Assembly (NCBI GenBank): GCA_964016885.1
Contig: OZ024741.1
Coordinates: forward strand, 82,894,001 to 82,958,000
DNA: 64,000 nucleotides
Direction: 5' to 3'
From: Eledone cirrhosa
Lineage: Eukaryota
A program made the position numbers and the translations under genes. A model generated the notes under the pieces. The model did not search any database and was not told the origin of the DNA. It saw only the letters and a list, made by a program, of their open reading frames with translations. Of this stretch, positions 4,156-50,186 are shown one piece after another; positions within the stretch are counted from its first letter, which is position 1; the number at the start of each line of letters is the position of its first letter.

Positions 4156-4393
4156 ATATATATATATATATATATATATACATGGAATATAAAAACAAAT
4201 TTGTTTCTCCATATTCTTCTTCTTCTTATATGCAATGTAATTGCATTATACAATCCGCCGTTGAAAAAGCGTATAAGCTGAAACCGGTACAATTAAATGC
4301 GGAAATCCCTATTTTGTAAATAGATGTTTTGATGTTATTCTTAGAGAAAAACCCCTTTAGCATTTTCTACTTTTTTTCCTTTTTAATATCTTA

Positions 4394-4456
<63 letters not shown>

Positions 4457-4458
<2 letters not shown>

Positions 4459-4632
4459 TATCGCCGTATTTTGAATAAAGTAATTAAACAAATTATTTAG
4501 ACTGATAGCGAGGTTAAGATCCCTCGGAGAAATGGAAAAAGATGAGTATTGACGTCACTACTCATCTTTTTCCATTTCTCCGAGGGTTCTTAACCCCACT
4601 ATCAATTTCTTTAGTCAAAATACGGCGATAGC
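4457..4632. repeat. Foldback/MITE-like hairpin
   Basis: Terminal gctatcgccgtattttga / tcaaaatacggcgatagc. Inner ccctcggagaaatggaaaaagatgagta / tactcatctttttccatttctccgaggg centred on gacgtc. Abuts (TA)n. Confidence 0.85.
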
Positions 4633-9777: not shown

Positions 9778-10154
9778 TTTATATATATATATATATAAAT
9801 ATATATATATGTAAATATACATATGTAAATATACATATATATATATATTTATATATATATAAAAACAGATAACGAAACGAAATTAAATTTCGTTTCGTTT
9901 GTAACTCACTTTTGTATGACTGACGCTTAAACAATTAAGTTAAAAATGTACATCCACATATGTGTACTGAAATACTAGTATGCATATGAATACACACACG
10001 TATACATATGTAGATGTACCAAGTCTTTCACTGGTTACTTTACTGTGAGTACCCAGCTATTCTGTATGTAAACACGCAGACAAACCGGTTTTTTGGAGTC
10101 ATACTGGTTTTTGAGGAAACACCTTTCCTCTATTCTCAAGAAAGCCAGACAAGG

Positions 10155-10199
10155 AATATTGAACTAGTTTCGTTGTTGTTACAACTCATCAGCAATATT
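10155..10199 (-). ncRNA. Minimal type I hammerhead ribozyme (family 1)
   Basis: Reverse complement reads aatattg CTGATGA gttgt aaca acaac GAAA ctag TT caatatt. Confidence 0.85.
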
Positions 10200-10250
10200 T
10201 ACCTATCTACCGGCCTTTCTGGAGAATCGTAAAAGGCCGGTAGATAGGTA

Positions 10251-10295
10251 AATATTGCTGATGAGTTGTAACAACAACGAAACTAGTTCAATATT
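10251..10295 (+). ncRNA. Minimal type I hammerhead ribozyme (family 1); another copy at 10717-10761
   Basis: aatattg CTGATGA gttgt-aaca-acaac GAAA c-ta-g TT caatatt: 7-bp stem I, 5-bp stem II, palindromic ACTAGT stem III, GUU site. Confidence 0.85.
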
Positions 10296-10979
10296 CCTTG
10301 TCTGGCTTTCTGGAGAATAGAGGAAAGGTGTTTCCTCAAAAACCAGTATGACTCTAAAAACCGGTTTGTCTGTGTGTTTACATACAGAATAGATGGGTAC
10401 TCACAGTAAAGTAACCAGTGAAAGACTTGGTACATCTACATATGTATACGTGTGTGTATTCATATGCATACTAGTATTTCAGTATACATATGTGGATGTA
10501 CATTTTTAACTTAATTGTTTAAGCGTCAGTCATACAAAAGTGAGTTACAAACGAAACGAAATTTAATTTCGATTCGTTATTTGTTTTTATCGTCTCCGTT
10601 GAACCGGTACGTACTCACACTCTATGCAAATTAGTCTGCCCACTACTAATTTTCATAGAAAAAGCATATAACGATATGTGCTTTTACTATTCTCCAGAAA
10701 GGCCGGTAGATAGGTAAATATTGCTGATGAGTTGTAACAACAACGAAACTAGTTCAATATTCCTTGTCTGGCTTTCTGGAGAATAGAGGAAAGGTGTTTC
10801 CTAAAAAACCAGTATGACTCTAAAAACCGGTTTGTCTACGTGTTTACATACAGAATAGCTGGGTACTCACAGTAAAGAAACCAGTGAAAGACTTGGTACA
10901 TCTACATATGTATACGTGTGTGTATTCATATGCATACTAGTATTTCAGTATACATATGTGGATGTACATTTTTAACTTA

Positions 10980-11025
<46 letters not shown>

Positions 11026-12201: not shown

Positions 12202-14400
12202 ATATTTATTAAAATAACAGATTAAAGTTTAAGCAAAGAATCGCTGCTTTCACACTTAACGGAATCTTCTGAAACTAACAAAGTCAATCTGTAAACGCAG
12301 AAGTGGATATTTCAAAAAACGTTGCAACCAGAGGAAGACAGGAAAACGATACTTTGGTTCGTGGAAACGTTCGCTGGCAAAGAACGGGAAAAAACGAATA
12401 TAATACGTCATTAATAGGAGCGGTGAAAAACAATTACGCGCAAAGACAGAACCACGTTTATGGTATAAAAGAGGTCGTAGACTAATGTTCTCTTAGGTGG
12501 TTCATAGAGACGTTCTCTGGCAATGAACGAAAAAAACGAAGACAATACGTCATATGTGGAACGTGGAGAACAATAGCACGCAAAGACAAAACCACGTAAA
12601 AGGTATAGCAGAAGTCGTAGACTAAATTCTAACTAGGAGACCGAATGAATCTCCGCTACAGAGTTAAGAACAAAGTAAATAAATACAATACAGAAGTAAT
12701 AGAAATAAATAAATACATACACGCAAACAAATATGTACATACACAAGCATACGCATACACTTACCATAGGTATACAAAACCACGCACATATAAATATGTG
12801 TGTGTGTGTATGCGTGTATACAAATAAATAAATAATTATATAAACGTATATAAATAAATAAATACGTATATAACAAGGGCACACACATACCTACATGTAA
12901 AACACGAATGTTCGGAGACGTAAGTCAACCAAAACATGAAGTACACATATACACACACTCTACATACGTACGAACCAGCATACTCACACAGACGCAAAAC
13001 TCACGTATACACAAAGTCAAACCATATGTACCAGAATATATAAAAAAAATACGCCATAACATAAACAATCAAATATACGTACGAGAAGGTATACGTACCT
13101 TCACAAAACATACGGGTAATATATACTTACCTATGCAAATAAGTAATGGTTTAAACATAACTTATACTTAGCTCCCACATCAAGACGTAAACTATCCACG
13201 TATATATCGTACTATCCGTTAGGGTATAACGTGGGGCTGTAATACAGGAAAGTTTTGTGCAATTTATATTTACAAGCCAAAATTGCCTCAGATTTTTTGT
13301 TTAAGATGTGGTCTGTGGCGTAGAGTATTTCCAGGGCCTCAGCGGCGCAGAGGTCACATGGTCTTTTATTTCCGTTATACGATCTAGCCCCAGCTAGGAT
13401 CTCCCAGTGTAACTTATATTGGGTGTGGTTGTCTTTTAGACAACCACGTCATATTCTTTCTTAGAGGGTAACGAAAAGAATGGGTATGCATGTAAAGACG
13501 CTGCTTGAATATATTGGCGGTTAACCCTATGTAGGCCCTACGGGACGTGGGTGTTACAACCTTAAATTTGTAGACAATGTTACTAGAGAGGCATTTCCCG
13601 GATAGTGGGCAATCAACCCGATTCCTACAATTACAGTTAGTACTAACTACAGGGTTGCACGTGTTCCTACGGCTAGGTAGTTTAGCTAAATTTGAAGCTG
13701 TGATGTTATGTGCAAGGTTAGGAGTCGTAGAGTAAGACATTTCAATTGTATTTCTATTAAACATTTTACTATATTTATGTGTAGGGGGAAAATGCTTCGT
13801 AATAAGGGAAAGAAAGATCTTAGCTAATGGTGTGGCCACCTCCATATTATAAGGTGGGTTATACATACAAATGCGACGGGATCTATTTCTTCTAGGTCTA
13901 TTTTCGTATTCTGTATATGCTACTTATCGACAAATCCACTTCGAGCAAGAGCTTCATTGTAATAAGTGGAATGGTCGTAGAAAATACGCTCGTTGGTGGA
14001 AAGAAGGGAAAGCCTCAACGAAACGTTTCTTACCAGGTTGTTGGTTATGCTGGCAGGATGGTTGGAATGCTTACTTATGTAATTAAGCGTATCATTCGGC
14101 TTTCTATACGGGTAATACAACCCATTCAAGAAATTGAGGGTAACGTCGAGGTAATTAACGAACGAGAGATTGGCCTCAACCTGTGTAGAGAGGTTGAAGC
14201 CTTTAAAGAAGGCTGTGAGTTCTTTTCTGAACCTGTCGCAAGCACGAGGTCCGCACTTAGTCATGGTCAAAAGACCATCGTCAGGGTACAAACCACCGCC
14301 CGCATTGGGGAATTGATCCTTGATAGAGAAAATAAGGAAAAGGCCGATAAGATCAGTAACCTCCACAGAATCACTGGCGCCCATACTCACGTCGAATGGG
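12202..14400 (-). mobile_element. 5'-truncated Penelope-like retroelement (RT C-terminus, GIY-YIG, long 3' region)
   Basis: ORF 13920-14390 has MGASDSVEVTDLIGLF..GGLYPDDGL..YLDVTLN..PYRKPN..SNHP. ORF 13414-13866 has CNCRNRVDCPLSGKCL..IVY..YIGLT..FKQR. Second copy at 57100-58952. Confidence 0.9.
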
Positions 14401-14458
14401 GTACTATATATATATATATAAAAGAAGAAATTAAAAGATGGTTAAAGAAGTTCCATAT

Positions 14459-14526
14459 ATTTTATTATGCGCATTTCGAAAACAACATCATCCTGGGACA
14501 AAAATTGTGTTCTCATCAGATAAAAT
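14459..14526 (-). ncRNA. Hammerhead ribozyme in Penelope pLTR
   Basis: Reverse complement: attttat CTGATGA gaacacaat...gttgttttc GAAA tgcgca TA ataaaat. 7-bp stem I, palindromic ATGCGCAT stem III, AUA site. Confidence 0.8.
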
Positions 14527-17187
14527 AAGGTAACATGATATGATGTCTAAAAACACTTGTCAACAAGAAAGTGTTCAGTCTACATATGACAGAAATATAA
14601 GAGTAAGAAAAAGATAGGAAAATAGAAAAAAAGGAAAGAAAAAGGAGTAAAAGGAAAAAGAAATAGAAGAGAGGAAAAAAAGAAAAAAAGAAAGAAGGAA
14701 GAGGGAGAAAGAGAAAGAGAGAGAGAGACGTTTGATCAGGACCGCTTTCAAAATGAAAACAGCTGTAAGTAACGGCTAAAAAGTAAATTTATGAGGTGTA
14801 TGTGCGAGAATTATAGATTGTATTCAAATATTAGAGGTCTAAAATATAGAAACTGGGTATATTATTTTATATTGGGTTTATATACTAAAAATTGGATTAA
14901 GAAGTGTATTAATGTATTAATAAAGTAAAATTAAATTAAATTAAAATAAGTATAAAAAAAGGTTTTTAAAATAAAATAAAATACAATAAAAACATAAAAA
15001 TAAAAATAGTCTATCTATGTCAAAATTAAAAACTTCTGTTAAAAATCTATATATGTGGGGTATACTATTTAATTATTTAATATCAACAAGTAAGTAAAGG
15101 AAATTGCTAGAATGATTTATAAACATAAAAAACATATGGCGTCATAGTTTGTTTACAAAATCTACGATGGTTTGAACGAAAATTTAAGGCTATCTAAAAA
15201 AGTCAAAGTTTTAAAATATGCTGAGAAAACTGAATTAATACATTGTAGAATATAATGAAATATGTGTAAAAAATATATGTGTAAAAAAAAATATATATGT
15301 GTAAAAGAAATTAACCGTTATTCGGGGAATATGTTATAGGACATTAGCTATATACTTTGTGAAAGATTTTGAAGGATTTATGATTACAAAGACCAAATAA
15401 ATCTGTTCTTCTCTTTATTATAGAGTTGAAATTCGAGATAATGGTACATTTTTCAACTAGACATAAATTACAAACATTACATATGGAAGCATTGGAGTAT
15501 GGAGATGCATTGTAGATTTTACGCCAAGAAATTTCGTAATTAATGTGTTTGTCTTTTAATGGCCAAATAAGCTCTGAGAGTGCGGTGATGGTCCTTTTAA
15601 GTGGATATTTAAATGAAGAAGAATGATTATAGAATCTTGTTTTAAAAGAGGTAGATATAGAGCCAATGTAGTTATAGGTATTGGTACTAGTTACCACTTT
15701 ACATTCATATACTAGGTTTTTATCGAGACAGAAATGACTAAGAGGACAATCAGTTCTAATAGGGCAGTTGCATTTACGATTAAGATTATTTACAGTGTTA
15801 CTGGCATGTGGCCCAGGATGAATTATATTAGGAACTGGAGTGGTGGAATTAATTAAGGAGTTGCTAAAGTTTCTAGATTTACATTACTATTTGATGTATT
15901 CCTCAAAGTTACGTTTGACGTCGTATTTATATTTGTGTTATTTTGCCTAGAGTTTACATTGACGTCAGGCCTTATAGTGTTATTGTTATGGCTGTCATTG
16001 TTGGATGCATATGAGTTATTCTTTAATATTTTAAAATTATGTCTTGAGATAATTTTAGAAATGCTGGAAGTAGTGGAATATGAGAATTTAATAGTATGCT
16101 TATTGAATATATTGCTATATATATTAAACTGTTATATGAAACTGTTATAAAAATAATTTAGGGATATTATTAATAACGGAAAGAAAGATGGGAGCGTTGT
16201 ACCAAAGGATATTTTTATATCTAGGTCTACTCCTTCTGTTATTGGTATGATTATTACCAACTACATTACTAGAGTTACTATAGGCTCTGCCAAGATTAGT
16301 TTCCTTAGTATACCTAATTTTGTCTAGATATCCAGCCCTAGATAGCGCCTTATTATAATAATTGCCGTTAGCTTCGAAGATATCTTTGTTAGAGGATACA
16401 TTAGAAATTCTGTTTTCTACACTTCTGACTATAGCAGTTTCAACATTATTATGGTGGTTAGATTTAAAGTTAACGTAATTTAAGTTCTCATTATCCTTAT
16501 GATATGGGCAATAGGCCGGTATCAAGATTAAGGGTTATATCAAGGAAATTTGCTAATTTATCATTATTCTCGAATTCAATTTTTAAGTTAACATGCTTAA
16601 ATAGATCAAGTATATTTTTTTAATAATATTAAAGTTTACTTTGTAACAATTAGATGCAGTAAAAAGTGCATCATCACGATAAATTCCACTGCGAAGTTGA
16701 GGAATTTTCCGATTTAAAGAGTTCAAGATGAACATTCCAACAAAGTCGGTCAGTTGAGCTGAATCCGACGAACCCATGGTGATGTCGAAACTATCCGCTC
16801 TTGTCCAATATTCATTGTTAAATTCCAAGATGGTTTTCCTTGGGGTGAGAATGATGTTAATTTTTTCACTAGTGATGTCCGTGTATTTTAACGCATATGA
16901 GAGCCTTGTTTAGGAGTGAAGGAGAAAGAGAAGAATAATAGTTACCAATGTCTAACTGAATACATTTTAGTTTACTGTTTTTATTAATTAGGCCATTGAA
17001 CCAGTATATTACATCGGATGTAAACAACCATAAATTTAGTTGAGATTTAAACCTAACACCTGGGATAATTCTATCCAAGATAGATTTACTAACAGCCCCT
17101 AGGTCAGATTTAGAAGGGGGAATTAGTCTTACAGGCAAGTCACTTTCGTTTTGACAAGTGTTTTTAGGCCTCATATCATGTTACCTT

Positions 17188-21800: not shown

Positions 21801-22146
21801 TAGCCGCTATATGTATATACATTTATACTCAATATGACAAAAGACCAATGTTAACAACTTAAATTCATTCATTAATTACTACGTCCATTTCAATGCGGTA
21901 TATGCATATGTAAACCTCTGAAAATAATTAATTATCGATTATTAACACCATACATATTTCCTATAGCTGCATATAATAGGAAAAGGAGAAAGTAGGTTTA
22001 GGTAAAAAAAAAGATTACTTATCTATTATTAACAATGGTATTCATTTTCATTACGTAGATAAAATTTGTTGTTAGATGTGCTGGAGTGAAGGATAATTAA
22101 CAAGCAATATCAAGCAATCAGCATAAACTATGATTATATATATATA

Positions 22147-25100
22147 TAAAAACAAATAACGAAACGAAATTAAATTTCGTTTCGTTTGTAACTCACTTTT
22201 GTATGACTGACGCTTAAACAATTAAGTTAAAAATGTACATCCACATATGTATACTGAAATACTAGTATGCATATGAATACACACACGTATACATATGTAG
22301 ATGTACCGAGTTTTTCACTGGTCACTTTACTGTGAGTGTCCAGCTATTCTGTATGTAAACACACAGACAAACCGGTTTTTAGAGTCATACTGGTTTTTGA
22401 GGAAACACCTTTCCTATATTCTCCTGAAAGCCAGGCAAGGAATATTGAACTAGTTTCGATGTTGTTACATCTCATCAGCAATATTTACCTATCTTCCGGC
22501 CTCTCTAGAGAATCGTAAAAGCACATATCGTTATATGCTTTTTCTATGAAAATAAGTAGTGGGCAGACTAATTTGCATAGAGCGTGAGTACGTACCGGTT
22601 CAACGGAGACGATAAAAACAAATAACGAAACGAAATTAAATTTCGTTTCGTTTGTAACTCACTTTTGTATGACTGACGCTTAAACAATTAAGTTAAAAAT
22701 GTACATCCACATATGTATACTGAAATACTAGTATGCATATGAATACACACACGTATACATATGTAGATGTACCGAGTTTTTCACTGGTCACTTTACTGTG
22801 AGTGTCCAGCTATTCTGTATGTAAACACACAGACAAACCGGTTTTTAGAATCATACTGGTTTTTGAGGAAACACCTTTCCTATATTCTCCTGAAAGCCAG
22901 GCAAGGAATATTGAACTAGTTTCGATGTTGTTACATCTCATCAGCAATATTTACCTATCTTCCGGCCTCTCTAGAGAATCGTAAAAGCACATATCGTTAT
23001 ATGCTTTTTCTATGAAAATAAGTAGTGGGCAGACTAATTTGCATAGAGCGTGAGTACGTACCGGTTCAACGGAGACGATAAAAACAAATAACGAAACGAA
23101 ATTAAATTTCGTTTCGTTTGTAACTCACTTTTGTATGACTGACGCTTAAACAATTAAGTTAAAAATGTACATCCACATATGTATACTGAAATACTAGTAT
23201 GCATATGAATACACACACGTATACATATGTAGATGTACCGAGTTTTTCACTGGTCACTTTACTGTGAGTGTCCAGCTATTCTGTATGTAAACACACAGAC
23301 AAACCGGTTTTTAGAGTCATACTGGTTTTTGAGGAAACACCTTTCCTATATTCTCCTGAAAGCCAGGCAAGGAATATTGAACTAGTTTCGATGTTGTTAC
23401 ATCTCATCAGCAATATTTACCTATCTTCCGGCCTCTCTAGAGAATCGTAAAAGCACATATCGTTATATGCTTTTTCTATGAAAATAAGTAGTGGGCAGAC
23501 TAATTTGCATAGAGCGTGAGTACGTACCGGTTCAACGGAGACGATAAAAACAAATAACGAAACGAAATTAAATTTCGTTTCGTTTGTAACTCACTTTTGT
23601 ATGACTGACGCTTAAACAATTAAGTTAAAAATGTACATCCACATATGTATACTGAAATACTAGTATGCATATGAATACACACACGTATACATATGTAGAT
23701 GTACCGAGTTTTTCACTGGTCACTTTACTGTGAGTGTCCAGCTATTCTGTATGTAAACACACAGACAAACCGGTTTTTAGAGTCATACTGGTTTTTGAGG
23801 AAACACCTTTCCTATATTCTCCTGAAAGCCAGGCAAGGAATATTGAACTAGTTTCGATGTTGTTACATCTCATCAGCAATATTTACCTATCTTCCGGCCT
23901 CTCTAGAGAATCGTAAAAGCACATATCGTTATATGCTTTTTCTATGAAAATAAGTAGTGGGCAGACTAATTTGCATAGAGCGTGAGTACGTACCGGTTCA
24001 ACGGAGACGATAAAAACAAATAACGAAACGAAATTAAATTTCGTTTCGTTTGTAACTCACTTTTGTATGACTGACGCTTAAACAATTAAGTTAAAAATGT
24101 ACATCCACATATGTATACTGAAATACTAGTATGCATATGAATACACACACGTATACATATGTAGATGTACCGAGTTTTTCACTGGTCACTTTACTGTGAG
24201 TGTCCAGCTATTCTGTATGTAAACACACAGACAAACCGGTTTTTAGAGTCATACTGGTTTTTGAGGAAACACCTTTCCTATATTCTCCTGAAAGCCAGGC
24301 AAGGAATATTGAACTAGTTTCGATGTTGTTACATCTCATCAGCAATATTTACCTATCTTCCGGCCTCTCTAGAGAATCGTAAAAGCACATATCGTTATAT
24401 GCTTTTTCTATGAAAATAAGTAGTGCGCAGACTAATTTGCATAGAGCGTGAGTACGTACCGGTTCAACGGAGACGATAAAAACAAATAACGAAACGAAAT
24501 TAAATTTCGTTTCGTTTGTAACTCACTTTTGTATGACTGACGCTTAAACAATTAAGTTAAAAATGTACATCCACATATGTATACTGAAATACTAGTATGC
24601 ATATGAATACACACACGTATACATATGTAGATGTACCGAGTTTTTCACTGGTCACTTTACTGTGAGTGTCCAGCTATTCTGTATGTAAACACACAGACAA
24701 ACCGGTTTTTAGAGTCATACTGGTTTTTGAGGAAACACCTTTCCTATATTCTCCTGAAAGCCAGGCAAGGAATATTGAACTAGTTTCGATGTTGTTACAT
24801 CTCATCAGCAATATTTACCTATCTTCCGGCCTCTCTAGAGAATCGTAAAAGCACATATCGTTATATGCTTTTTCTATGAAAATAAGTAGTGGGCAGACTA
24901 ATTTGCATAGAGCGTGAGTACGTACCGGTTCAACGGAGACGATAAAAACAAATAACGAAACGAAATTAAATTTCGTTTCGTTTGTAACTCACTTTTGTAT
25001 GACTGACGCTTAAACAATTAAGTTAAAAATGTACATCCACATATGTATACTGAAATACTAGTATGCATATGAATACACACACGTATACATATGTAGATGT

Positions 25101-26411
25101 ACCGAGTTTTTCACTGGTCACTTTACTGTGAGTGTCCAGCTATTCTGTATGTAAACACACAGACAAACCGGTTTTTAGAGTCATACTGGTTTTTGAGGAA
25201 ACACCTTTCCTATATTCTCCTGAAAGCCAGGCAAGGAATATTGAACTAGTTTCGATGTTGTTACATCTCATCAGCAATATTTACCTATCTTCCGGCCTCT
25301 CTAGAGAATCGTAAAAGCACATATCGTTATATGCTTTTTCTATGAAAATAAGTAGTGGGCAGACTAATTTGCATAGAGCGTGAGTACGTACCGGTTCAAC
25401 GGAGACGATAAAAACAAATAACGAAACGAAATTAAATTTCGTTTCGTTTGTAACTCACTTTTGTATGACTGACGCTTATACAATTAAGTTAAAAATGTAC
25501 ATCCACATATGTATACTGAAATACTAGTATGCATATGAATACACACACGTATACATATGTAGATGTACCGAGTTTTTCACTGGTCACTTTACTGTGAGTG
25601 TCCAGCTATTCTGTATGTAAACACACAGACAAACCGGTTTTTAGAGTCATACTGGTTTTTGAGGAAACACCTTTCCTATATTCTCCTGAAAGCCAGGCAA
25701 GGAATATTGAACTAGTTTCGATGTTGTTACATCTCATCAGCAATATTTACCTATCTTCCGGCCTCTCTAGAGAATCGTAAAAGCACATATCGTTATATGC
25801 TTTTTCTATGAAAATAAGTAGTGGGCAGACTAATTTGCATAGAGCGTGAGTACGTACCGGTTCAACGGAGACGATAAAAACAAATAACGAAAGGAAATTA
25901 AATTTCGTTTCGTTTGTAACTCACTTTTGTATGACTGACGCTTAAACAATTAAGTTAAAAATGTACATCCACATATGTATACTGAAATACTAGTATGCAT
26001 ATGAATACACACACGTATACATATGTAGATGTACCGAGTTTTTCACTGGTCACTTTACTGTGAGTGTCCAGCTATTCTGTATGTAAACACACAGACAAAC
26101 CGGTTTTTAGAGTCATACTGGTTTTTGAGGAAACACCTTTCCTATATTCTCCTGAAAGCCAGGCAAGGAATATTGAACTAGTTTCGATGTTGTTACATCT
26201 CATCAGCAATATTTACCTATCTTCCGGCCTCTCTAGAGAATCGTAAAAGCACATATCGTTATATGCTTTTTCTATGAAAATAAGTAGTGGGCAGACTAAT
26301 TTGCATAGAGCGTGAGTACGTACCGGTTCAACGGAGACGATAAAAACAAATAACGAAACGAAATTAAATTTCGTTTCGTTTGTAACTCACTTTTGTATGA
26401 CTGACGCTTAA
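22147..26411 (-). repeat. Left arm of 466-bp tandem array: 9.15 units, 9 hammerheads on the minus strand
   Basis: Exact 466-bp period (ORF track 22336, 22802 ... 26064). First HHR at 22441-22485. Starts in (TA)n. Confidence 0.97.
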
Positions 26412-26441
26412 CGATTCTCTAGAGAGGCCGGAAGATAGGTA

Positions 26442-26486
26442 AATATTGCTGATGAGATGTAACAACATCGAAACTAGTTCAATATT
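26442..26486 (+). ncRNA. Minimal type I hammerhead ribozyme (representative of the 26 array copies)
   Basis: aatattg CTGATGA gatgt-aaca-acatc GAAA c-ta-g TT caatatt. All core nucleotides are canonical, stem III is palindromic, and stem I extends via gccgg/ctggc and ttctc/gagaa. Confidence 0.88.
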
Positions 26487-26814
26487 CCTTGCCTGGCTTT
26501 CAGGAGAATATAGGAAAGGTGTTTCCTCAAAAACCAGTATGACTCTAAAAACCGGTTTGTCTGTGTGTTTACATACAGAATAGCTGGACACTCACAGTAA
26601 AGTGACCAGTGAAAAACTCGGTACATCTACATATGTATACGTGTGTGTATTCATATGCATACTAGTATTTCAGTATACATATGTGGATGTACATTTTTAA
26701 CTTAATTGTTTAAGCGTCAGTCATACAAAAGTGAGTTACAAACGAAACGAAATTTAATTTCGTTTCGTTATTTGTTTTTATCGTCTCCGTTGAACCGGTA
26801 CGTACTCACGCTCT

Positions 26815-26862
26815 ATGCAAATTAGTCTGCCCACTACTTATTTTCATAGAAAAAGCATATAA
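26815..26862 (+). promoter_or_regulatory. Putative internal snRNA-type promoter: octamer ATGCAAAT + TATA-like CATATAA (in every unit)
   Basis: Octamer at 26815, catata at 26856. Same pair with 42-43 bp spacing at 48814/48856 and 42852/42895. Confidence 0.5.
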
Positions 26863-29800
26863 CGATATGTGCTTTTACGATTCTCTAGAGAGGCCGGAAG
26901 ATAGGTAAATATTGCTGATGAGATGTAACAACATCGAAACTAGTTCAATATTCCTTGCCTGGCTTTCAGGAGAATATAGGAAAGGTGTTTCCTCAAAAAC
27001 CAGTATGACTCTAAAAACCGGTTTGTCTGTGTGTTTACATACAGAATAGCTGGACACTCACAGTAAAGTGACCAGTGAAAAACTCGGTACATCTACATAT
27101 GTATACGTGTGTGTATTCATATGCATACTAGTATTTCAGTATACATATGTGGATGTACATTTTTAACTTAATTGTTTAAGCGTCAGTCATACAAAAGTGA
27201 GTTACAAACGAAACGAAATTTAATTTCGTTTCGTTATTTGTTTTTATCGTCTCCGTTGAACCGGTACGTACTCACGCTCTATGCAAATTAGTCTGCCCAC
27301 TACTTATTTTCATAGAAAAAGCATATAACGATATGTGCTTTTACGATTCTCTAGAGAGGCCGGAAGATAGGTAAATATTGCTGATGAGATGTAACAACAT
27401 CGAAACTAGTTCAATATTCCTTGCCTGGCTTTCAGGAGAATATAGGAAAGGTGTTTCCTCAAAAACCAGTATGACTCTAAAAACCGGTTTGTCTGTGTGT
27501 TTACATACAGAATAGCTGGACACTCACAGTAAAGTGACCAGTGAAAAACTCGGTACATCTACATATGTATACGTGTGTGTATTCATATGCATACTAGTAT
27601 TTCAGTATACATATGTGGATGTACATTTTTAACTTAATTGTTTAAGCGTCAGTCATACAAAAGTGAGTTACAAACGAAACGAAATTTAATTTCGTTTCGT
27701 TATTTGTTTTTATCGTCTCCGTTGAACCGGTACGTACTCACGCTCTATGCAAATTAGTCTGCCCACTACTTATTTTCATAGAAAAAGCATATAACGATAT
27801 GTGCTTTTACGATTCTCTAGAGAGGCCGGAAGATAGGTAAATATTGCTGATGAGATGTAACAACATCGAAACTAGTTCAATATTCCTTGCCTGGCTTTCA
27901 GGAGAATATAGGAAAGGTGTTTCCTCAAAAACCAGTATGACTCTAAAAACCGGTTTGTCTGTGTGTTTACATACAGAATAGCTGGACACTCACAGTAAAG
28001 TGACCAGTGAAAAACTCGGTACATCTACATATGTATACGTGTGTGTATTCATATGCATACTAGTATTTCAGTATACATATGTGGATGTACATTTTTAACT
28101 TAATTGTTTAAGCGTCAGTCATACAAAAGTGAGTTACAAACGAAACGAAATTTAATTTCGTTTCGTTATTTGTTTTTATCGTCTCCGTTGAACCGGTACG
28201 TACTCACGCTCTATGCAAATTAGTCTGCCCACTACTTATTTTCATAGAAAAAGCATATAACGATATGTGCTTTTACGATTCTCTAGAGAGGCCGGAAGAT
28301 AGGTAAATATTGCTGATGAGATGTAACAACATCGAAACTAGTTCAATATTCCTTGCCTGGCTTTCAGGAGAATATAGGAAAGGTGTTTCCTCAAAAACCA
28401 GTATGACTCTAAAAACCGGTTTGTCTGTGTGTTTACATACAGAATAGCTGGACACTCACAGTAAAGTGACCAGTGAAAAACTCGGTACATCTACATATGT
28501 ATACGTGTGTGTATTCATATGCATACTAGTATTTCAGTATACATATGTGGATGTACATTTTTAACTTAATTGTTTAAGCGTCAGTCATACAAAAGTGAGT
28601 TACAAACGAAACGAAATTTAATTTCGTTTCGTTATTTGTTTTTATCGTCTCCGTTGAACCGGTACGTACTCACGCTCTATGCAAATTAGTCTGCCCACTA
28701 CTTATTTTCATAGAAAAAGCATATAACGATATGTGCTTTTACGATTCTCTAGAGAGGCCGGAAGATAGGTAAATATTGCTGATGAGATGTAACAACATCG
28801 AAACTAGTTCAATATTCCTTGCCTGGCTTTCAGGAGAATATAGGAAAGGTGTTTCCTCAAAAACCAGTATGACTCTAAAAACCGGTTTGTCTGTATGTTT
28901 ACATACAGAATAGCTGGACACTCACAGTAAAGTGACCAGTGAAAAACTCGGTACATCTACATATGTATACGTGTGTGTATTCATATGCATACTAGTATTT
29001 CAGTATACATATGTGGATGTACATTTTTAACTTAATTGTTTAAGCGTCAGTCATACAAAAGTGAGTTACAAACGAAACGAAATTTAATTTCGTTTCGTTA
29101 TTTGTTTTTATCGTCTCCGTTGAACCGGTACGTACTCACGCTCTATGCAAATTAGTCTGCCCACTACTTATTTTCATAGAAAAAGCATATAACGATATGT
29201 GCTTTTACGATTCTCTAGAGAGGCCGGAAGATAGGTAAATATTGCTGATGAGATGTAACAACATCGAAACTAGTTCAATATTCCTTGCCTGGCTTTCAGG
29301 AGAATATAGGAAAGGTGTTTCCTCAAAAACCAGTATGACTCTAAAAACCGGTTTGTCTGTGTGTTTACATACAGAATAGCTGGACACTCACAGTAAAGTG
29401 ACCAGTGAAAAACTCGGTACATCTACATATGTATACGTGTGTGTATTCATATGCATACTAGTATTTCAGTATACATATGTGGATGTACATTTTTAACTTA
29501 ATTGTTTAAGCGTCAGTCATACAAAAGTGAGTTACAAACGAAACGAAATTTAATTTCGTTTCGTTATTTGTTTTTATCGTCTCCGTTGAACCGGTACGTA
29601 CTCACGCTCTATGCAAATTAGTCTGCCCACTACTTATTTTCATAAAAAAGCATATAACGAGATGTGCTTTTACGATTCTCTAGAGAGGCCGGAAGATAGG
29701 TAAATATTGCTGATGAGATGTAACAACATCGAAACTAGTTCAATATTCCTTGCCTGGCTTTCAGGAGAATATAGGAAAGGTGTTTCCTCAAAAACCAGTA

Positions 29801-32800
29801 TGACTCTAAAAACCGGTTTGTCTGTGTGTTTACATACAGAATAGCTGGACACTCACAGTAAAGTGACCAGTGAAAAACTCGGTACATCTACATATGTATA
29901 CGTGTGTGTATTCATATGCATACTAGTATTTCAGTATACATATGTGGATGTACATTTTTAACTTAATTGTTTAAGCGTCAGTCATACAAAAGTGAGTTAC
30001 AAACGAAACGAAATTTAATTTCGTTTCGTTATTTGTTTTTATCGTCTCCGTTGAACCGGTACGTACTCACGCTCTATGCAAATTAGTCTGCCCACTACTT
30101 ATTTTCATAGAAAAAGCATATAACGATATGTGCTTTTACGATTCTCTAGAGAGGCCGGAAGATAGGTAAATATTGCTGATGAGATGTAACAACATCGAAA
30201 CTAGTTCAATATTCCTTGCCTGGCTTTCAGGAGAATATAGGAAAGGTGTTTCCTCAAAAACCAGTATGACTCTAAAAACCGGTTTGTCTGTATGTTTACA
30301 TACAGAATAGCTGGACACTCACAGTAAAGTGACCAGTGAAAAACTCGGTACATCTACATATGTATACGTGTGTGTATTCATATGCATACTAGTATTTCAG
30401 TATACATATGTGGATGTACATTTTTAACTTAATTGTTTAAGCGTCAGTCATACAAAAGTGAGTTACAAACGAAACGAAATTTAATTTCGTTTCGTTATTT
30501 GTTTTTATCGTCTCCGTTGAACCGGTACGTACTCACGCTCTATGCAAATTAGTCTGCCCACTACTTATTTTCATAGAAAAAGCATATAACGATATGTGCT
30601 TTTACGATTCTCTAGAGAGGCCGGAAGATAGGTAAATATTGCTGATGAGATGTAACAACATCGAAACTAGTTCAATATTCCTTGCCTGGCTTTCAGGAGA
30701 ATATAGAAAAGGTGTTTCCTCAAAAACCAGTATGATTCTAAAAACCGGTTTGTCTGTGTGTTTACATACAGAATAGCTGGACACTCACAGTAAAGTGACC
30801 AGTGAAAAACTCGGTACATCTACATATGTATACGTGTGTGTATTCATATGCATACTAGTATTTCAGTATACATATGTGGATGTACATTTTTAACTTAATT
30901 GTTTAAGCGTCAGTCATACAAAAGTGAGTTACAAACGAAACGAAATTTAATTTCGTTTCGTTATTTGTTTTTATCGTCTCCGTTGAACCGGTACGTACTC
31001 ACGCTCTATGCAAATTAGTCTGCCCACTACTTATTTTCATAGAAAAAGCATATAACGATATGTGCTTTTACGATTCTCTAGAGAGGCCGGAAGATAGGTA
31101 AATATTGCTGATGAGATGTAACAACATCGAAACTAGTTCAATATTCCTTGCCTGGCTTTCAGGAGAATATAGGAAAGGTGTTTCCTCAAAAACCAGTATG
31201 ACTCTAAAAACCGGTTTGTCTGTGTGTTTACATACAGAATAGCTGGACACTCACAGTAAAGTGACCAGTGAAAAACTCGGTACATCTACATATGTATACG
31301 TGTGTGTATTCATATGCATACTAGTATTTCAGTATACATATGTGGATGTACATTTTTAACTTAATTGTTTAAGCGTCAGTCATACAAAAGTGAGTTACAA
31401 ACGAAACGAAATTTAATTTCCTTTCGTTATTTGTTTTTATCGTCTCCGTTGAACCGGTACGTACTCACGCTCTATGCAAATTAGTCTGCCCACTACTTAT
31501 TTTCATAGAAAAAAGCATATAACGATATGTGCTTTTACGATTCTCTAGAGAGGCCGGAAGATAGGTAAATATTGCTGATGAGATGTAACAACATCGAAAC
31601 TAGTTCAATATTCCTTGCCTGGCTTTCAGGAGAATATAGGAAAGGTGTTTCCTCAAAAACCAGTATGACTCTAAAAACCGGTTTGTCTGTGTGTTTACAT
31701 ACAGAATAGCTGGACACTCACAGTAAAGTGACCAGTGAAAAACTCGGTACATCTACATATGTATACGTGTGTGTATTCATATGCATACTAGTATTTCAGT
31801 ATACATATGTGGATGTACATTTTTAACTTAATTGTTTAAGCGTCAGTCATACAAAAGTGAGTTACAAACGAAACGAAATTTAATTTCGTTTCGTTATTTG
31901 TTTTTATCGTCTCCGTTGAACCGGTACGTACTCACGCTCTATGCAAATTAGTCTGCCCACTACTTATTTTCATAAAAAAGCATATAACGATATGTGCTTT
32001 TACGATTCTCTAGAGAGGCCGGAAGATAGGTAAATATTGCTGATGAGATGTAACAACATCGAAACTAGTTCAATATTCCTTGCCTGGCTTTCAGGAGAAT
32101 ATAGGAAAGGTGTTTCCTCAAAAACCAGTATGACTCTAAAAACCGGTTTGTCTGTGTGTTTACATACAGAATAGCTGGACACTCACAGTAAAGTGACCAG
32201 TGAAAAACTCGGTACATCTACATATGTATACGTGTGTGTATTCATATGCATACTAGTATTTCAGTATACATATGTGGATGTACATTTTTAACTTAATTGT
32301 TTAAGCGTCAGTCATACAAAAGTGAGTTACAAACGAAACGAAATTTAATTTCGTTTCGTTATTTGTTTTTATCGTCTCCGTTGAACCGGTACGTACTCAC
32401 GCTCTATGCAAATTAGTCTGCCCACTACTTATTTTCATAGAAAAAGCATATAACGATATGTGCTTTTACGATTCTCTAGAGAGGCCGGAAGATAGGTAAA
32501 TATTGCTGATGAGATGTAACAACATCGAAACTAGTTCAATATTCCTTGCCTGGCTTTCAGGAGAATATAGGAAAGGTGTTTCCTCAAAAACCAGTATGAC
32601 TCTAAAAACCGGTTTGTCTGTATGTTTACATACAGAATAGCTGGACACTCACAGTAAAGTGACCAGTGAAAAACTCGGTACATCTACATATGTATACGTG
32701 TGTGTATTCATATGCATACTAGTATTTCAGTATACATATGTGGATGTACATTTTTAACTTAATTGTTTAAGCGTCAGTCATACAAAAGTGAGTTACAAAC

Positions 32801-34157
32801 GAAACGAAATTTAATTTCGTTTCGTTATTTGTTTTTATCGTCTCCGTTGAACCGGTACGTACTCACGCTCTATGCAAATTAGTCTGCCCACTACTTATTT
32901 TCATAGAAAAAGCATATAACGATATGTGCTTTTACGATTCTCTAGAGAGGCCGGAAGATAGGTAAATATTGCTGATGAGATGTAACAACATCGAAACTAG
33001 TTCAATATTCCTTGCCTGGCTTTCAGGAGAATATAGGAAAGGTGTTTCCTCAAAAACCAGTATGATTCTAAAAACCGGTTTGTCTGTGTGTTTACATACA
33101 GAATAGCTGGACACTCACAGTAAAGTGACCAGTGAAAAACTCGGTACATCTACATATGTATACGTGTGTGTATTCATATGCATACTAGTATTTCAGTATA
33201 CATATGTGGATGTACATTTTTAACTTAATTGTTTAAGCGTCAGTCATACAAAAGTGAGTTACAAACGAAACGAAATTTAATTTCGTTTCGTTATTTGTTT
33301 TTATCGTCTCCGTTGAACCGGTACGTACTCACGCTCTATGCAAATTAGTCTGCCCACTACTTATTTTCATAGAAAAAGCATATAACGATATGTGCTTTTA
33401 CGATTCTCTAGAGAGGCCGGAAGATAGGTAAATATTGCTGATGAGATGTAACAACATCGAAACTAGTTCAATATTCCTTGCCTGGCTTTCAGGAGAATAT
33501 AGGAAAGGTGTTTCCTCAAAAACCAGTATGACTCTAAAAACCGGTTTGTCTGTGTGTTTACATACAGAATAGCTGGACACTCACAGTAAAGTGACCAGTG
33601 AAAAACTCGGTACATCTACATATGTATACGTGTGTGTATTCATATGCATACTAGTATTTCAGTATACATATGTGGATGTACATTTTTAACTTAATTGTTT
33701 AAGCGTCAGTCATACAAAAGTGAGTTACAAACGAAACGAAATTTAATTTCGTTTCGTTATTTGTTTTTATCGTCTCCGTTGAACCGGTACGTACTCACGC
33801 TCTATGCAAATTAGTCTGGCCACTACTTATTTTCATAGAAAAAAGCATATAACGATATGTGCTTTTACGATTCTCTAGAGAGGCCGGAAGATAGGTAAAT
33901 ATTGCTGATGAGATGTAACAACATCGAAACTAGTTCAATATTCCTTGCCTGGCTTTCAGGAGAATATAGGAAAGGTGTTTCCTCAAAAACCAGTATGACT
34001 CTAAAAACCGGTTTGTCTGTGTGTTTACATACAGAATAGCTGGACACTCACAGTAAAGTGACCAGTGAAAAACTCGGTACATCTACATATGTATACGTGT
34101 GTGTATTCATATGCATACTATTATTTCAGTATACATATGTGGATGTACATTTTTAAC

Positions 34158-34222
<65 letters not shown>

Positions 34223-35655: not shown

Positions 35656-35679
35656 TATATATATACACATGTATATATA

Positions 35680-36222
35680 TATTACTGTGCGTCTGTATAC
35701 ATATATGTATGCACGTATTCATACTTATATTTAAGTAACAGCCATACTAAGAGTGAGAAATGAAATTTCGTTTCATTTTTTCCATTTATCGTTTTCGGTG
35801 CGCCCGGCCGATTAACTCACTCGATATGCAAATTAGGCTGCTCAGCCGTTAATATGCATAAGGAAAATATACACTTTCAGACGTTCAATCATCTGGCAGG
35901 AAGGTATACGGTGCTGAAGATAGCTAATAAGCTTGAAACTAGTACATCGTTCCTTTGTCAGTGTTGAACAAAAGGGCAACGGAGGGTTGCTAAACACTGT
36001 ACGGCTTAATCCGGGATGTTTGTTTACAAGCAAACCGAGCATTATAATAAATGTTCGGTAAATCCATACGTACATATATATATGAGTGCATGTATGTATA
36101 TATATACATACTAATGTACGTCTGTATACATATATGTATGTACGTATACATACTTATATATAAGTAACAGCCGCACTAGGTGTAAGAAATGAAATTTCGT
36201 TTCATTTTTTCCATTTATCGTT
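35680..36222 (+). mobile_element. Diverged ~1.25-unit copy of HHR repeat family 2 (~430-bp period); HHR at 35908-35950
   Basis: acggtg CTGAAGA tagct aata agctt GAAA ctag TA catcgt, with atgcaaattaggctgctcagcc upstream. Homologous to 48786-50187. Confidence 0.85.
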
Positions 36223-41879: not shown

Positions 41880-42340
41880 TCCCGTATTTCGTACTTTTTG
41901 GTACTTATCAAAGCTCACTACTCCTCCTGTTTGTTGAAAATTTAAATAAGTGACATTGTCACTATTTTAAAAGAAAAGCGTATGGTCTTCAAAATGCTTT
42001 TCATTAAGCATACAGTGTATTGCAAAATACAGTATATATACATTCATATATATATCGCTATTTCAGAGCACCAATTCTAATTTTCATTTTCTGCTGGGCC
42101 CGGGACCAATTTATATAACCAGTTTCTGATTATTACTGGAATTCTATAAGAATCCAACACACATAATTTTCAGAAAACAGGGGGAGTAGAGAGCTTTGAT
42201 ACGTACCAAAAAGTACGAAACAGAGCTCTGTCAGTTTATCTCCCGTGTTTGCTGAAAATTTAAATAATTGACATTGTCAGTATTTTAAAACAATAGCGTA
42301 TGTTCTTCAAAATGCTTTTAATTAAGCATGCAGTGTATAC
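41880..42340. mobile_element. Decayed HHR-type repeat: short inverted arm + ~318-bp-period direct repeat
   Basis: 41934-42020 repeats at 42252-42340. gagct TTGATAc gtac-caaaaa-gtac GAAA cagagctctg TC agtt at 42191-42236, with an inverted copy at 41887-41916. Confidence 0.55.
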
Positions 42341-42397
42341 ATATATACATATATACATATATATTTGTATGTATGTATGTGTGTGTGTGTGTGTGTA

Positions 42398-43235
42398 TAA
42401 ATATTTCGTATCTCCAAAGAAATACGGTTTTAGGAAGCCGTAGCTATGCAAACAGCGGGGTGCTAACGATATCTGGTGATCTCCAGCAGAAGCAAGGGGG
42501 ACGGTTCGTCTATGCATTTCAGGCTTAACTGGCCTTCGTCAGGACGGTCCCTCCCACCGCTTGCGACTGCTGGACTAGAAGACAGGCGAGAATATATACG
42601 TTTTTCGTCTGTGTAAATGAGGTGATTAATCTCAATTGCATATGAAGCTATTTAGCCTGAAATGCATGGACGGTTGTCCCCCTTGCTTCTGCTGGACATC
42701 ACTAGACAGCTTTAACCCCCCGGTTTTTTGCATAGCTAAAAACTGTATTTCTTTGGAGATACAAAATATTTATACGTATGTATAAAGCTATGCTTGAAGA
42801 AAAATCCTATTTCTTTTTTATTATAATTTGAACCAGCTTACGATGCTTCATATGCAAATGACATTAATCACCTCATTAACACAGACGAGAAAAGTATATA
42901 TTCTCGCCTGTCTTCTAGTACTACAGTCGCTAGCGGTGGGAGGGACCGTCTTGACGAAGGCCAGTTAAGCCTGAAATCCATAGACGGTTGTCCCCTTTGC
43001 TTCTGCTGGACATCACCAGACGGCGTTAGCCCTCCGGTGTTTGCATAACTACAGCTTCCTAAAACCGTATTTCTTTGGAGATACGAAATATTTATACATA
43101 TTGTATGAAGCTATGCTTGAAGCCAAATCCTATTTCTTTCTTATTATAAGTTGAGCCAGCTTATGCAGCTTCATATGCAAATGAGATTAATCACCTCGTT
43201 TACACAGACGAGAAACGTATATATTTCTCCTGTCT
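42398..43235. mobile_element. HHR repeat family 3: inverted arm (42398-42650) + ~1.8 direct units of ~315-320 bp
   Basis: Left arm is the reverse complement of 42845-43095. Direct repeats gcctgaaat.cat.gacggttgtcccc at ~42655 and ~42969. Confidence 0.85.
42507..42546 (-). ncRNA. Minimal type I hammerhead ribozyme (family 3); mutated plus-strand copy at 42945-42988
   Basis: Reverse complement: cgtc CTGACGA aggc-cagttaa-gcct GAAA tgca TA gacg, with palindromic ATGCAT stem III. Confidence 0.8.
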
Positions 43236-43375: not shown

Positions 43376-44598
<1,223 letters not shown>

Positions 44599-45519: not shown

Positions 45520-47490
45520 ACACCATTATATTCCCGCATTCTGCTGCGAATCATAAGGCACCCCAACTTTATAAAACACCGATACAGAGAATCATACAAT
45601 CCTAATAACACATGCATAAACACATTCAGATACATAGATATGTTTCTTTTATTTGCCACCAGGGCATCAAAAGTGGAAAAAGTACGATGGGGGGAGTTTA
45701 CAAAACAAGGCGTCCTCAATAAGGAGGAGGCAATAACAATATATAAAAATAAAATAAAATATAACAAAACATAAAATTTATAACACAGTCTTCAATAGAG
45801 AGGAGGCGCCTTGGGGGGTCGCACACACCCCGAAAAAAAGTGTGCAACCCTTCACCTCAGGAGCACAGAGAAGGGGTGCTCCCTTGGTCTTTCATCTTCC
45901 TCACTTATAGTCAGATGTAGAGTGAAGGCCCATTCACACGGGCCATTCTCGCCACTTTCACCCATCTTTCATAAAAACGGCTGGGGTGCAGCACCTCTCT
46001 CTCCATCCTGATCCTTCTTCCGAAATGATATCGGAAGAAACGGACCAGTTGTTGGCCAGAGAGAAAGGTGTCTGACCTCAGTCCTTTCAGACGTGTCCAC
46101 CATGCAACCTCTTTCGCCATGGCTATTACGCACAGAAACACCGCCTCTCCTTCGTTTTTGAAGAGGGGAGGCGGCTTGATCGTTACAATAGACCCGGTGG
46201 TCAACCGGATCGGTCCCACCCTTGATAGCAGTTGTTCGACATAGCCCCACAGATCGGCAATGCCCGAGCAGTGTACCAATGCGTGTGCAACGGTTTCCGC
46301 GTCGCACACGCATCTGGGACAGATCTTTTTCGAGGGGTCCCTACCCGGGCGCCCGTGTCTGTAGAGCCTTTCTCGAACGGGCAGAGCCCTTCTATAGCAT
46401 TGCCAGGCCAGGGACCTCTAGAAGTTATCCATGGGTCCCGGGCTGAATGTCCTATCGAACAGGTTGGCCAGTTCGTCTTCCTCCATGCCTAGGGCTTCTC
46501 CGAGGGCGTCGTCGCAATTTATAACCACCAGCCCTCTATAGAATAACGAGGTGGATTCTCCACTGACAGCCGGGTCCGCCTGCCAGAGAGCCGTGAGCGC
46601 CAGGGCACACTCGGTGTGCCAGGCGCCCAGTTTTCTCGGTCTTTGCTTGACCCAGGATTGCAGCTAGGTGAGTGAGACGAGTCTGGGAAAGGCTCGCCTC
46701 ACAAACGGGGCCCACACCCGTTGATCGGAGAGGAATACCTGAAGGTGCCGTAGCCTTAATGCGTGTTTACGTATCATTAGCCACGGCATCCCCAGCCCTC
46801 CTTTCGAAGGGTGTTGACAGCAGATGGATCTCTTCACCATAGGAGCCCGCTTCTTCCAAAGGAATTGGAAGAGTGCGCGCTCCATTTTGGCGAGCGTTTC
46901 CCTTGGGCAAGGCACAACGGTCAGGCGGTAGTAGATGACGGACGCTATATAAGTGTTCGCCACCTCCGCCCGACCTTTCAGGGACAGTTTGCACTCGGCC
47001 GACTTCTGGGTCAGTGCAAACACCCTGTTCGTTACCTCACCCCAGTTCTTCTCCACCTGGAGGTCTGGTCCGAACCAGACCCCGAGCAACTTCACCGGGC
47101 CCTCCGTCCAGCGCCCGACGACGCCATCGGAAGGCATCGATCTGCCCCTCGACGTGCCGAGTTGCAGACCGATCGACTTGTCCCGGTTCAGCTTAACCCT
47201 GTAAACCTTTCGTACTCCTCCAGTAAGGTGCCGATCGCCCCGATTTCCTAGGCCGTCGACACCATTACTGTTACGTCATCGGCGTAGGCTGACACTGCTT
47301 TCCGCAATCCCGGTTCCAACGGGATGCCCTGCAACAACTCCAACTTCTGCAGCAGTGGCTCTAGAGTCATTACATACAGAAGGGAGGAGAGAGGGCACCC
47401 CTGTCGGATGGACCGCGCGATTTCGAACGGCTCCGAGAGGTAGCCGTTCACCTTGACCCTAGAGCAGATGCGGCTGCTGTGCATGGCATT
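45520..47490 (-). mobile_element. 5'-truncated Tx1/L1-clade LINE (RT core to C-terminal zinc knuckle, 3' UTR)
   Basis: SIRQGCPLSSLLY..LEPLL..YADD, VKLLGVWF, LSLKGRAEVAN, KGGLGMP, C..ETVAHALVHC. A few stops/frameshifts; GC-rich. The 3' boundary is approximate. Confidence 0.9.
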
Positions 47491-48775: not shown

Positions 48776-50033
48776 CACACATATATATGCCTGACCGATT
48801 TAACTCACTCAATATGCAAATTAGGCTGCTCAGCCGTTAATTTTCATAAGAAAAGTATATACTTTCGAACGTTCAACCATCTGGCAGATGGGTATACGGT
48901 GCTGATGATAGCTAACAAGCTTGAAACTAGTACATCGTTCCTGTGTTAGTATTGAACAAAAAGGTGACGTGGTTGCCTTAACACCGTATGGCATAACTTA
49001 AGGCTGTTCAGTTTGTTTACAAACGAACAAAGCGGCGTTATAATAAGCGTCCGCTAAACTGATACGTGCATATATGTATGTGTACCTGTATGTATATATG
49101 TGTATATATATATATATATATATGCATGCTACTGTACGTCTGTATACATGTGTGTATGTACGTATACATACATACTTACATTTAAGTAAGTGCCATACTA
49201 AGAGTGAGAAATGAAATTTCGTTTTCATTTTATTTCAACTTATCGTTTTCGGTATGCCTGACCGATTTAACTCACTCAATATGCAAATTAGGCTGCTCAG
49301 CCGTTAATTTTCATAAGGAAAGTATATACTTTCGAACGTTCAACTATCTGGCAGATGGGTATACGGTGCTGATGATAGCTAACAAGCTTGAAACTAGTAC
49401 ATCGTTCCTGTGTTAGTGTTGAAGAATAAGGTGACGTGGTTGCCTTAACACCGTATGGCATAAATTCAGGCTGCTCTGTTTGTTTACAAACGAACAAAGC
49501 GGCGTTATAATAAGCGTCCGCTAAACTGATACGTGCATATATGTATGTGTACCTGTATGTATATATGTGTATATATATATATATATATATGCATGCTACT
49601 GTACGTCTGTATACATATATGTATGTACGTATACATACATACTTACATTTAAGTAAGTGCCATACTAGGAGTGAGAAATGAAATTTCGTTTTCATTTTAT
49701 TTCAACTTATCGTTTTCGGTATGCCTGACCGATTTAACTCACTCAACATGCAAATTAGGCTGCTCAGCTGTGAATTTTCATAAGGAAAGTATATACTTTC
49801 GAACGTTCAACTATCTGGCAGATGGGTATACGGTGCTGATGATAGCTAACAAGCTTGAAACTAGTACATCGTTCCTGTGTTGTTGAACAAAAAGGTGACG
49901 CGGTTGCCATAACACCGTATGGCATAAATTCAGGCTGCTCTGTTTGTTTACAAACGAACAAAGCGGCGTTATAATAAGCGTCCGCTAAACTGATACGTGC
50001 ATATATGTATGTGTACCTGTATGTATATGTGTG

Positions 50034-50073
<40 letters not shown>

Positions 50074-50186
50074 TGCTACTGTACGTCTGTGTACATATAT
50101 GTATGTACGTATACATACATACTTACATTTAAGTAAGTGCCATACTAAGAGTGAGAAATGAAATTTCGTTTTCATTTTATTTCAAC

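Follow-up and report, generated by a model that had tools for sequence, protein, structure and literature searches.

The octamer-bearing hammerhead ribozyme repeats found in a 64,000-nucleotide stretch of Eledone cirrhosa DNA (the whole stretch analysed, here called the window) carry, upstream of the ribozyme, a short module that probably allows every unit of the repeat to be transcribed from its own promoter. An snRNA-type promoter was known before in a hammerhead repeat, newt satellite 2; judged from its sequence, the module described here is not a copy of the U6 promoter and is best read as a variant that mixes two host promoter classes. We consider it highly probable that, in the source copies of these repeats, the module functions as a promoter.

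The ribozyme repeats are non-LTR retrozymes, made of tandem units of 311 to 467 bp with a type I hammerhead. The units (466, 467, 323, and 311 bp) are noncoding, with a GC content of 0.35 to 0.42, and no long open reading frame was found in the family 1 array, whose two arms lie head to head. Every full unit has a hammerhead core and stems I to III, stem III being short and palindromic. The family 1 hammerhead, with a predicted cut after GUU at 26945, matched Rfam HH9 with an E value of 2.8e-4, which is under the gathering score. The cited copy of family 3 has a hammerhead at 42951(+) with a degenerate core (TTGACGA), and an intact family 3 core lies at 42542 on the minus strand. Across the 3.0-Gb assembly (1,796 contigs), the exact family 1 and 2 core pattern occurred 31,174 times (control, 0) and a general hammerhead core pattern 96,001 times (control, 7,850). 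The 311-bp family is abundant, near-identical, and octamer-less, and it forms head-to-head arrays (L167:8450-10000, L186-L199, and L220).

The octamer, ATGCAAAT, starts at 26815 in family 1, 48814 in family 2, and 42852 in family 3 and is followed by a YATATA word starting at +41, +42, and +43, respectively, all exactly where the first-pass annotation had placed them. That annotation had also put the octamer 88 to 100 bp ahead of the hammerhead core, and we measured +100, +88, and +99 in the three families. The window holds 38 octamers, 6 of them outside the hammerhead repeats and 32 inside (26 in family 1, 4 in family 2/2b, and 2 in family 3). Spacing from octamer to TATA in the 26 family 1 copies was 41 bp in 22, 40 bp in 2, and 42 bp in 2. 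The features are listed in Table 1.

Table 1. Promoter modules, hammerheads, and repeat arrays in the window
Feature	Positions	Strand	Remarks
Family 1 octamer element TATGCAAATTAG	26814..26825	+	Same as host Pol III-class element; profile score 18.5/18.5 (maximum)
Family 1 CCAC	26831..26834	+	Octamer+16, at host Pol II box position; poor match (score -2.7, p 0.38)
Family 1 TATA-like word CATATAA	26856..26862	+	Starts at octamer+41
Family 1 predicted transcription start	26886..26888	+	TATA+30; inferred from host TATA at -30/-31 in 7/7 Pol III promoters
Family 1 type I hammerhead	26908..26952	+	Stem I AATATTG/CAATATT; core 26915; palindromic short stem III
Family 2 module	48813..48861	+	Octamer element 48813-48824; TCAG 48830-48833; TATATA 48856-48861
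Family 2 predicted transcription start	48886	+	Inferred
Family 2 hammerhead	48897..48937	+	Core 48902; predicted cut after GUA at 48932
Family 3 module	42851..42901	+	Octamer element 42851-42862; TCAC 42868-42871; TATATAT 42895-42901
Family 1 array, inverted arm	22146..26411	-	466-bp unit x 9.2
Family 1 array, forward arm	26408..34163	+	466-bp unit x 16.6; (TA)n at end
Second family 1 insertion	9859..10987	.	Head-to-head; octamer at 10624
Family 2 array	48786..50185	+	467-bp unit x 3
Family 2b copy	35657..36204	+	Octamer 35826; hammerhead 35914
Family 3 head-to-head insertion	42394..43235	.	~323-bp unit; second promoter module at 43175
Octamer-less relative of 311-bp family	42054..42300	+	CCAGT 42119; TATAAG 42145; decayed hammerhead-like core 42196

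We compared the module with two classes of host small-RNA promoters, represented by loci L001-L003, L101, L108, L109, and L116 and by loci L031-L070 and L117-L151. The U6, U6atac, tRNA-Sec, and MRP genes make up what we take to be the host Pol III class, and its profile was built from seven distinct top-ranked promoters. In all seven, a TATGCAAAT[TG]AG-like element stands at −76 to −79 (common form TATG[CG][AT]AAT[TG]AG, mostly with CCT at +15) and a TATA, preceded by G, at −30/−31, with 46 to 48 bp between element and TATA. Among 30 host U6 loci the element stood at −76 to −78 in 22, was displaced by an insertion in 6, and was absent from 2. It was present in the best U6atac match (1 of 6 loci, the others looking like pseudogenes), in both top matches of the 6 listed for tRNA-Sec, and in the single MRP gene. 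Variant U6 genes with ATGCTAAT form a tandem cluster with a period of ~1.8 kb (L003-L013 and L016-L030; C19, ~31.78-31.84 Mb), a repeat being inserted between TATA and upstream element in 6 of 26 loci. Both tRNA-Sec genes (L108 and L109) end in a short trailer hairpin with compensatory differences, followed by a T run.

No octamer was found within 110 to 120 nt upstream of any of 75 U1, U2, U4, and U5 loci. Fifteen representative Pol II promoters have AATTAAAT, YCAG ~33 bp further on, and TATA another 23 to 29 bp downstream; this profile excludes a motif-less U4 locus (L150) as well as RNase P, which has the box but no octamer and whose start is uncertain. In the Pol II snRNA genes AATTAAAT lies near −90 and TCAGT near −56, a TATA is present, and a 3′ box like AAATCAGACTT follows 11 to 23 nt past the RNA end. 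The single RNase P RNA gene (L107:1380-1850) has a Pol II-type TCAGT box and no octamer but ends in a T run. Leave-one-out scoring keeps the two host classes apart: Pol III genes scored 23 to 36 on their own model and 4.5 to 14 on the Pol II model, and Pol II genes scored 20 to 33 (19.7-33.4) on their own model and −2 to 10 on the Pol III model. Promoters of either class can serve to express small RNAs or guide RNAs in this group of animals.

Set against the host small-RNA promoters, a comparison that the first-pass annotation had proposed, the module matched the Pol III-class element carried by 7/7 promoters. Identity was 12/12 in families 1 and 2, and the TATGCAAAT[TG]AG element scored 18.5, 18.5, and 13.7 of 18.5 bits in families 1, 2, and 3. 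On the full Pol III profile, with a model spacing of 41 to 44, the three modules reached 28.4, 30.1, and 21.9 bits, that is, 22 to 30 bits compared with 23 to 36 for the host genes. Such scores were matched at only 2 or 3 of 793,600 background positions, a background that itself includes three family 2 copies. The repeats have the element and the TATA box in common with the host type 3 promoters (U6, U6atac, MRP, and tRNA-Sec) but differ from them in having YCAS at +16 rather than CCT at +15 and a spacing of 41 to 43 bp, 4 to 6 bp shorter than that of the host and thus about half a helical turn short. At the host distance of 46 to 48 bp, the TATA score was negative in all three families. The original description of the module as U6/H1-like therefore held in part: it does resemble host snRNA-type promoters, but it is not plainly U6- or H1-like, its spacing falling below that of 7/7 host genes.

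A YCAS word stands at octamer+16, 24 to 29 bp ahead of TATA, in every octamer-bearing lineage, meaning families 1 to 3 and the decayed hammerhead-like elements L214/L159, L215, and L105/L237. In families 1 to 3 it lies 24 to 27 bp ahead of TATA, as the YCAG-like box does before the TATA word in host U1, U2, U4, and U5 promoters, and is a weak match to that box, scoring −2.7 to 1.6 compared with 6 to 13 in 14/15 host Pol II genes; box scores were negative in 7/7 host Pol III promoters. Measured against 5,671 background TATA sites, p values were 0.38, 0.086, and 0.15 for families 1, 2, and 3 and 0.015, 0.15, and 0.002 for L214/L159, L215, and L105/L237, with TATA positions placed by hand, L214 and L215 hand-picked from an octamer+TATA list, and L105 found by a similarity search with L214. 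The combined p value of 0.004 to 0.014, for hand-chosen sets of three or four lineages, is optimistic because the lineages were selected and are possibly distantly related. An unselected 400 kb, made up of 8 stretches next to the window and 32 spaced ones, contained 31 octamers; 5 had YCAS at +16, and 5/5 lay inside these elements.

On the full Pol II model the best repeat score was 15.6 bits (family 2), compared with 19.7 to 33.4 for host genes. Host Pol II genes lack the octamer, have a 3′ box, and carry AATTAAAT 33 bp ahead of the YCAG box. In the repeats, AATTAAAT at that position was a loose match in family 2 (4.3/11.3 bits) and scored negative in families 1, 3, and 4, and a search for a host-type 3′ box in the units gave best sense scores of 1.1 to 6.5 bits, which is chance level. 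The 311-bp family and its relatives lack the octamer and have a box, AA[CT]CAGT, 26 to 27 bp before TATAAG, with p values of 0.002 to 0.015 in 5/6 sequences and 0.15 in one. Tandem octamer units (up to 4, ~33 bp apart) followed by a box, TATA, and a decayed hammerhead-like core were seen in L237 (minus strand, ~4390-4560) and L105 (minus strand, ~1620-1800), the L105 element adjoining both a Penelope-type hammerhead and a U6atac pseudogene in inverted orientation. A hand-picked octamer+GAG+TATA site, L216, was rejected as a further lineage, having no YCAS at +16 and no visible hammerhead. We also set aside a genome count of octamer+TATA sites (51,838; control, 16,616), which was inflated by overlapping microsatellite matches.

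The module had been presented as kept in three separate families, and the alignments reduce that number. Families 1 and 2 align colinearly over the whole unit (z 9.9 upstream and z 12.1 downstream) and, being homologous throughout, are not independent cases; they count as one origin, so that, on these alignments, the module rests on two lineages rather than three. Family 3, described earlier as otherwise not alignable, was indeed alignable in the promoter region only (z 4.5 to 5.4 there and z 0.3 to 0.6 downstream). Nor is the module kept in all hammerhead families, the octamer being absent from the 311-bp family and from Penelope-type hammerheads.

We looked for constraint in 23 family 2/2b copies chosen without regard to the promoter. 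The octamer pattern was kept in 19 of them, 4 had no intact octamer, and several had altered TATA words. Octamer and TATA were 42 bp apart in 15/15 copies in which both were matched, and the distance from octamer to ribozyme was 88 or 80 bp, an 8-bp deletion downstream of TATA marking one subfamily. Changes shared by subfamilies affected 7 of 49 module columns compared with 52 of 137 downstream columns (p 0.002, excluding 24 upstream columns, 7 of which had changed) and 0 of 11 ribozyme core columns. Reading this as constraint on a promoter is confounded because the module also folds as a predicted RNA hairpin in families 1, 2, and 2b; among the family 2/2b copies, the partner strand of the hairpin varies more than the octamer strand. 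An apparent surplus of private changes in the family 2 module (0.04 to 0.08 compared with 0.013 to 0.02 per column per copy) was discounted as largely due to the L226 deletion, since a deletion in one of 23 copies adds 0.043 by arithmetic. The family 1 copies (n = 11) are too similar to inform on constraint.

Insertions of these repeats have the anatomy of Penelope-like insertion, with head-to-head arms and (TA)n targets; inverted, 5′-truncated arms and (TA)n targets are traits ascribed to Penelope elements in a passage of PMC8557442. Their 3′ ends cluster at internal AT-rich sites, mostly joined to (TA)n, and in family 1 fell at 258-263 or 331-333 in 18/20. The 5′ ends are scattered over the unit, and insertions run across the promoter and often over several units, which suggests that the template was a multimer or circle. 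This is as expected of multimeric or circular RNA and agrees with the earlier proposal that the promoter may survive retrotransposition through the tandem or circular nature of the repeat. No 5′-end pile-up was found within 5 nt of the predicted start (1/21 in family 1 and 1/20 in family 2, after 4 ends at the query boundary were dropped; 0.5 expected), and none beyond chance was seen at the ribozyme cut site; insertion ends thus give no indication of the start. No octamer occurred 75 to 105 nt ahead of any listed long-stem Penelope-type hammerhead, and Penelope pseudo-LTRs were rejected on this ground as donor of the module.

Broken Penelope-like reverse transcriptase and GIY-YIG-like fragments, recognised by eye from motifs, lie in the window at 13414-14528(−), 15344-16534(−), and 53261-53791(+), and long-stem hammerheads at 14519(−), 17195(+), 54536(+), 60047(+), 9318(−), and 9476(+). 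A Pfam search of the Penelope-like fragments returned no domain, and a search for homologues of the endonuclease-like fragment found none.

Nine sequencing runs were searched as contigs, one of them recorded as RNA with a share of 0.05. The module was unmatched in assembled contigs of RNA or presumed-RNA runs (X1 gave AT-rich sequence only, and X2 and X3 gave nothing). In a contig from X7, whose library type is not on record, depth rose about five-fold at 48896 towards the ribozyme; contigs can show neither starts nor levels, and the rise was set aside. X8 and X9, which have other organism codes, contained low-depth pieces of family 2b and were not treated as independent. A metagenome scan for octamer, TATA, and core gave 60 matches, 0/60 of which fold as hammerheads.

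The reading we lean towards is a composite snRNA-type promoter, likely served by Pol II. Its transcripts would continue across units as multimers, to be cleaved and circularised by the ribozymes. The module would be bound by SNAPc and a POU factor, both being established for snRNA promoters according to PMC1761439, and transcription would start ~30 nt past the TATA, 16 to 28 nt ahead of the ribozyme core; for family 1 this predicted start lies within the range of ~26877-26890 suggested at first pass, and for family 3 it falls at 42925. Read-through of the array is proposed because the units have no host-type 3′ box. Successive hammerheads would then cut out unit-length RNAs, each holding the promoter of the next unit, and these would circularise. 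A Penelope-like enzyme would reverse transcribe the circles into (TA)n, priming on (TA)n DNA at internal sites rich in AU, which would give head-to-head arrays that retain the upstream promoter; for a Penelope element, initiation of reverse transcription internally at AT-rich targets, not based on homology, was shown in PMC11167929. Multimeric or circular RNA would thus offer a route to inherit an upstream-type promoter that is normally lost on retrotransposition.

As to the polymerase, several points tip the balance slightly towards Pol II: the octamer-TATA spacing, the YCAS box, the relatives without an octamer, the T runs that are not avoided, the read-through that the arrays require, and the precedent of the newt. 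The element-TATA distance sets the polymerase in plants, as stated in PMC9841428, but in flies it is the element sequence, as a passage in PMC1761439 has it, which would speak for Pol III in these repeats. A Pol III type 3 (U6-like) promoter tolerating a shorter spacer, with leaky T4-T6 terminators yielding occasional multimers, would account for the strongest signal being the Pol III-class element, for scores within the host range at spacings of 41 to 43, and for the G before TATA in families 2 and 3. T runs stand near the unit end (T5 twice in family 1 and T6 in family 2b), just upstream of the next promoter, as expected of a Pol III unit, and both family 1 3′-end clusters lie 2 to 14 nt past a T5. 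This alternative is a serious rival but in our judgement the less likely one: the spacing of 7/7 host genes is tight, with no TATA at that distance in the repeats, the host CCT at octamer+15 finds no more than a partial match, family 3 has no T4 run, and arrays require read-through. Comparison with shuffled units showed no depletion of Pol III stop signals.

In an improbable alternative, the module is no promoter at all: it would persist because of its RNA structure or through shared ancestry, and flanking promoters would transcribe the repeats. The homology of families 1 and 2, the position of the octamer within a predicted stem, and the spread of the abundant 311-bp family without an octamer would all fit such an account, but the pairing partner changes (TTTTCATA versus TATGCATA in family 2) and the folds of family 3 and L214 are different ones, yet the octamer stays mostly constant. 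Family 3 has only promoter and ribozyme in common with the others, and descent leaves the 12-bp match to host Pol III promoters unexplained. We give still less credence to the idea that the layout is an intact third host class copied from an unsampled small-RNA gene (U3, U7, U11, U12, U4atac, 7SK, SRP, and telomerase RNA lie outside the sample), a question of origin only that is compatible with use of Pol II. The layout is fixed across six lineages, the host comparison covered eight RNA families, and RNase P, with its TCAGT box and no octamer, departs from both classes; yet octamer plus YCAS at +16 was found in none of those eight families. Returning to the composite promoter, a bolder version, which we put forward only tentatively, is that retrozymes evolved an arrangement that no host gene uses, with Pol III octamer, Pol II spacing and box, and no 3′ box, a 5-bp change in the spacer switching the polymerase. 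If so, read-through of the array would regenerate promoter-bearing circles and, together with newt satellite 2, capture of host snRNA promoters would be a general, convergent explanation for the strong, constitutive expression of animal retrozymes.

The analysis defines a candidate retrozyme promoter against host snRNA genes, with a precise predicted start and a 5-bp spacer difference. Newt satellite 2 reportedly has an octamer as well. It is, like these repeats, a hammerhead tandem repeat with an internal snRNA-type promoter, a precedent that the first-pass annotation had invoked and that is on record as Pol II in the passage of PMC2220036 citing Coats et al. 1994. Compared with that satellite, the present repeats have an invertebrate host, a TATA, and a host Pol III-class element at shortened spacing. 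Schistosome satellite hammerhead repeats are likewise self-promoted, by what the same article (PMC2220036) describes as a Pol III promoter. As described for metazoan non-LTR retrozymes in passages of PMC7229834 and bioRxiv 10.64898/2026.07.22.740005, the repeats are short, low-GC, and tandem, carry in each unit a single type I hammerhead whose stem III is short and palindromic, and occur alongside Penelope-like elements at very high copy number; their units of 466 to 467 bp exceed the ~170 to 400 nt quoted there. Animal retrozymes are intensely transcribed in all tissues tested, according to PMC7229834. The main texts of that article (where "promoter" appears twice, both times as T7) and of bioRxiv 10.64898/2026.07.22.740005 (where the word is absent) describe no host promoter; retrozyme sequences are listed in the supplement of PMC7229834, which may be relevant here. 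The literature searched (main texts, mostly open-access) yielded no account of snRNA-type promoters in invertebrate retrozymes, of the composite architecture, or of cephalopod snRNA promoters, and PMC2837043 and PMC10886601 contributed nothing further.

AT microsatellites are abundant in the window. A repeat of roughly 600 bp is present in two copies with inverted parts at 43440-44460, and a GC-rich LINE-like fragment at 45911-47275(−) matches zf-RVT weakly (E 8e-6, slightly short of the cut-off).
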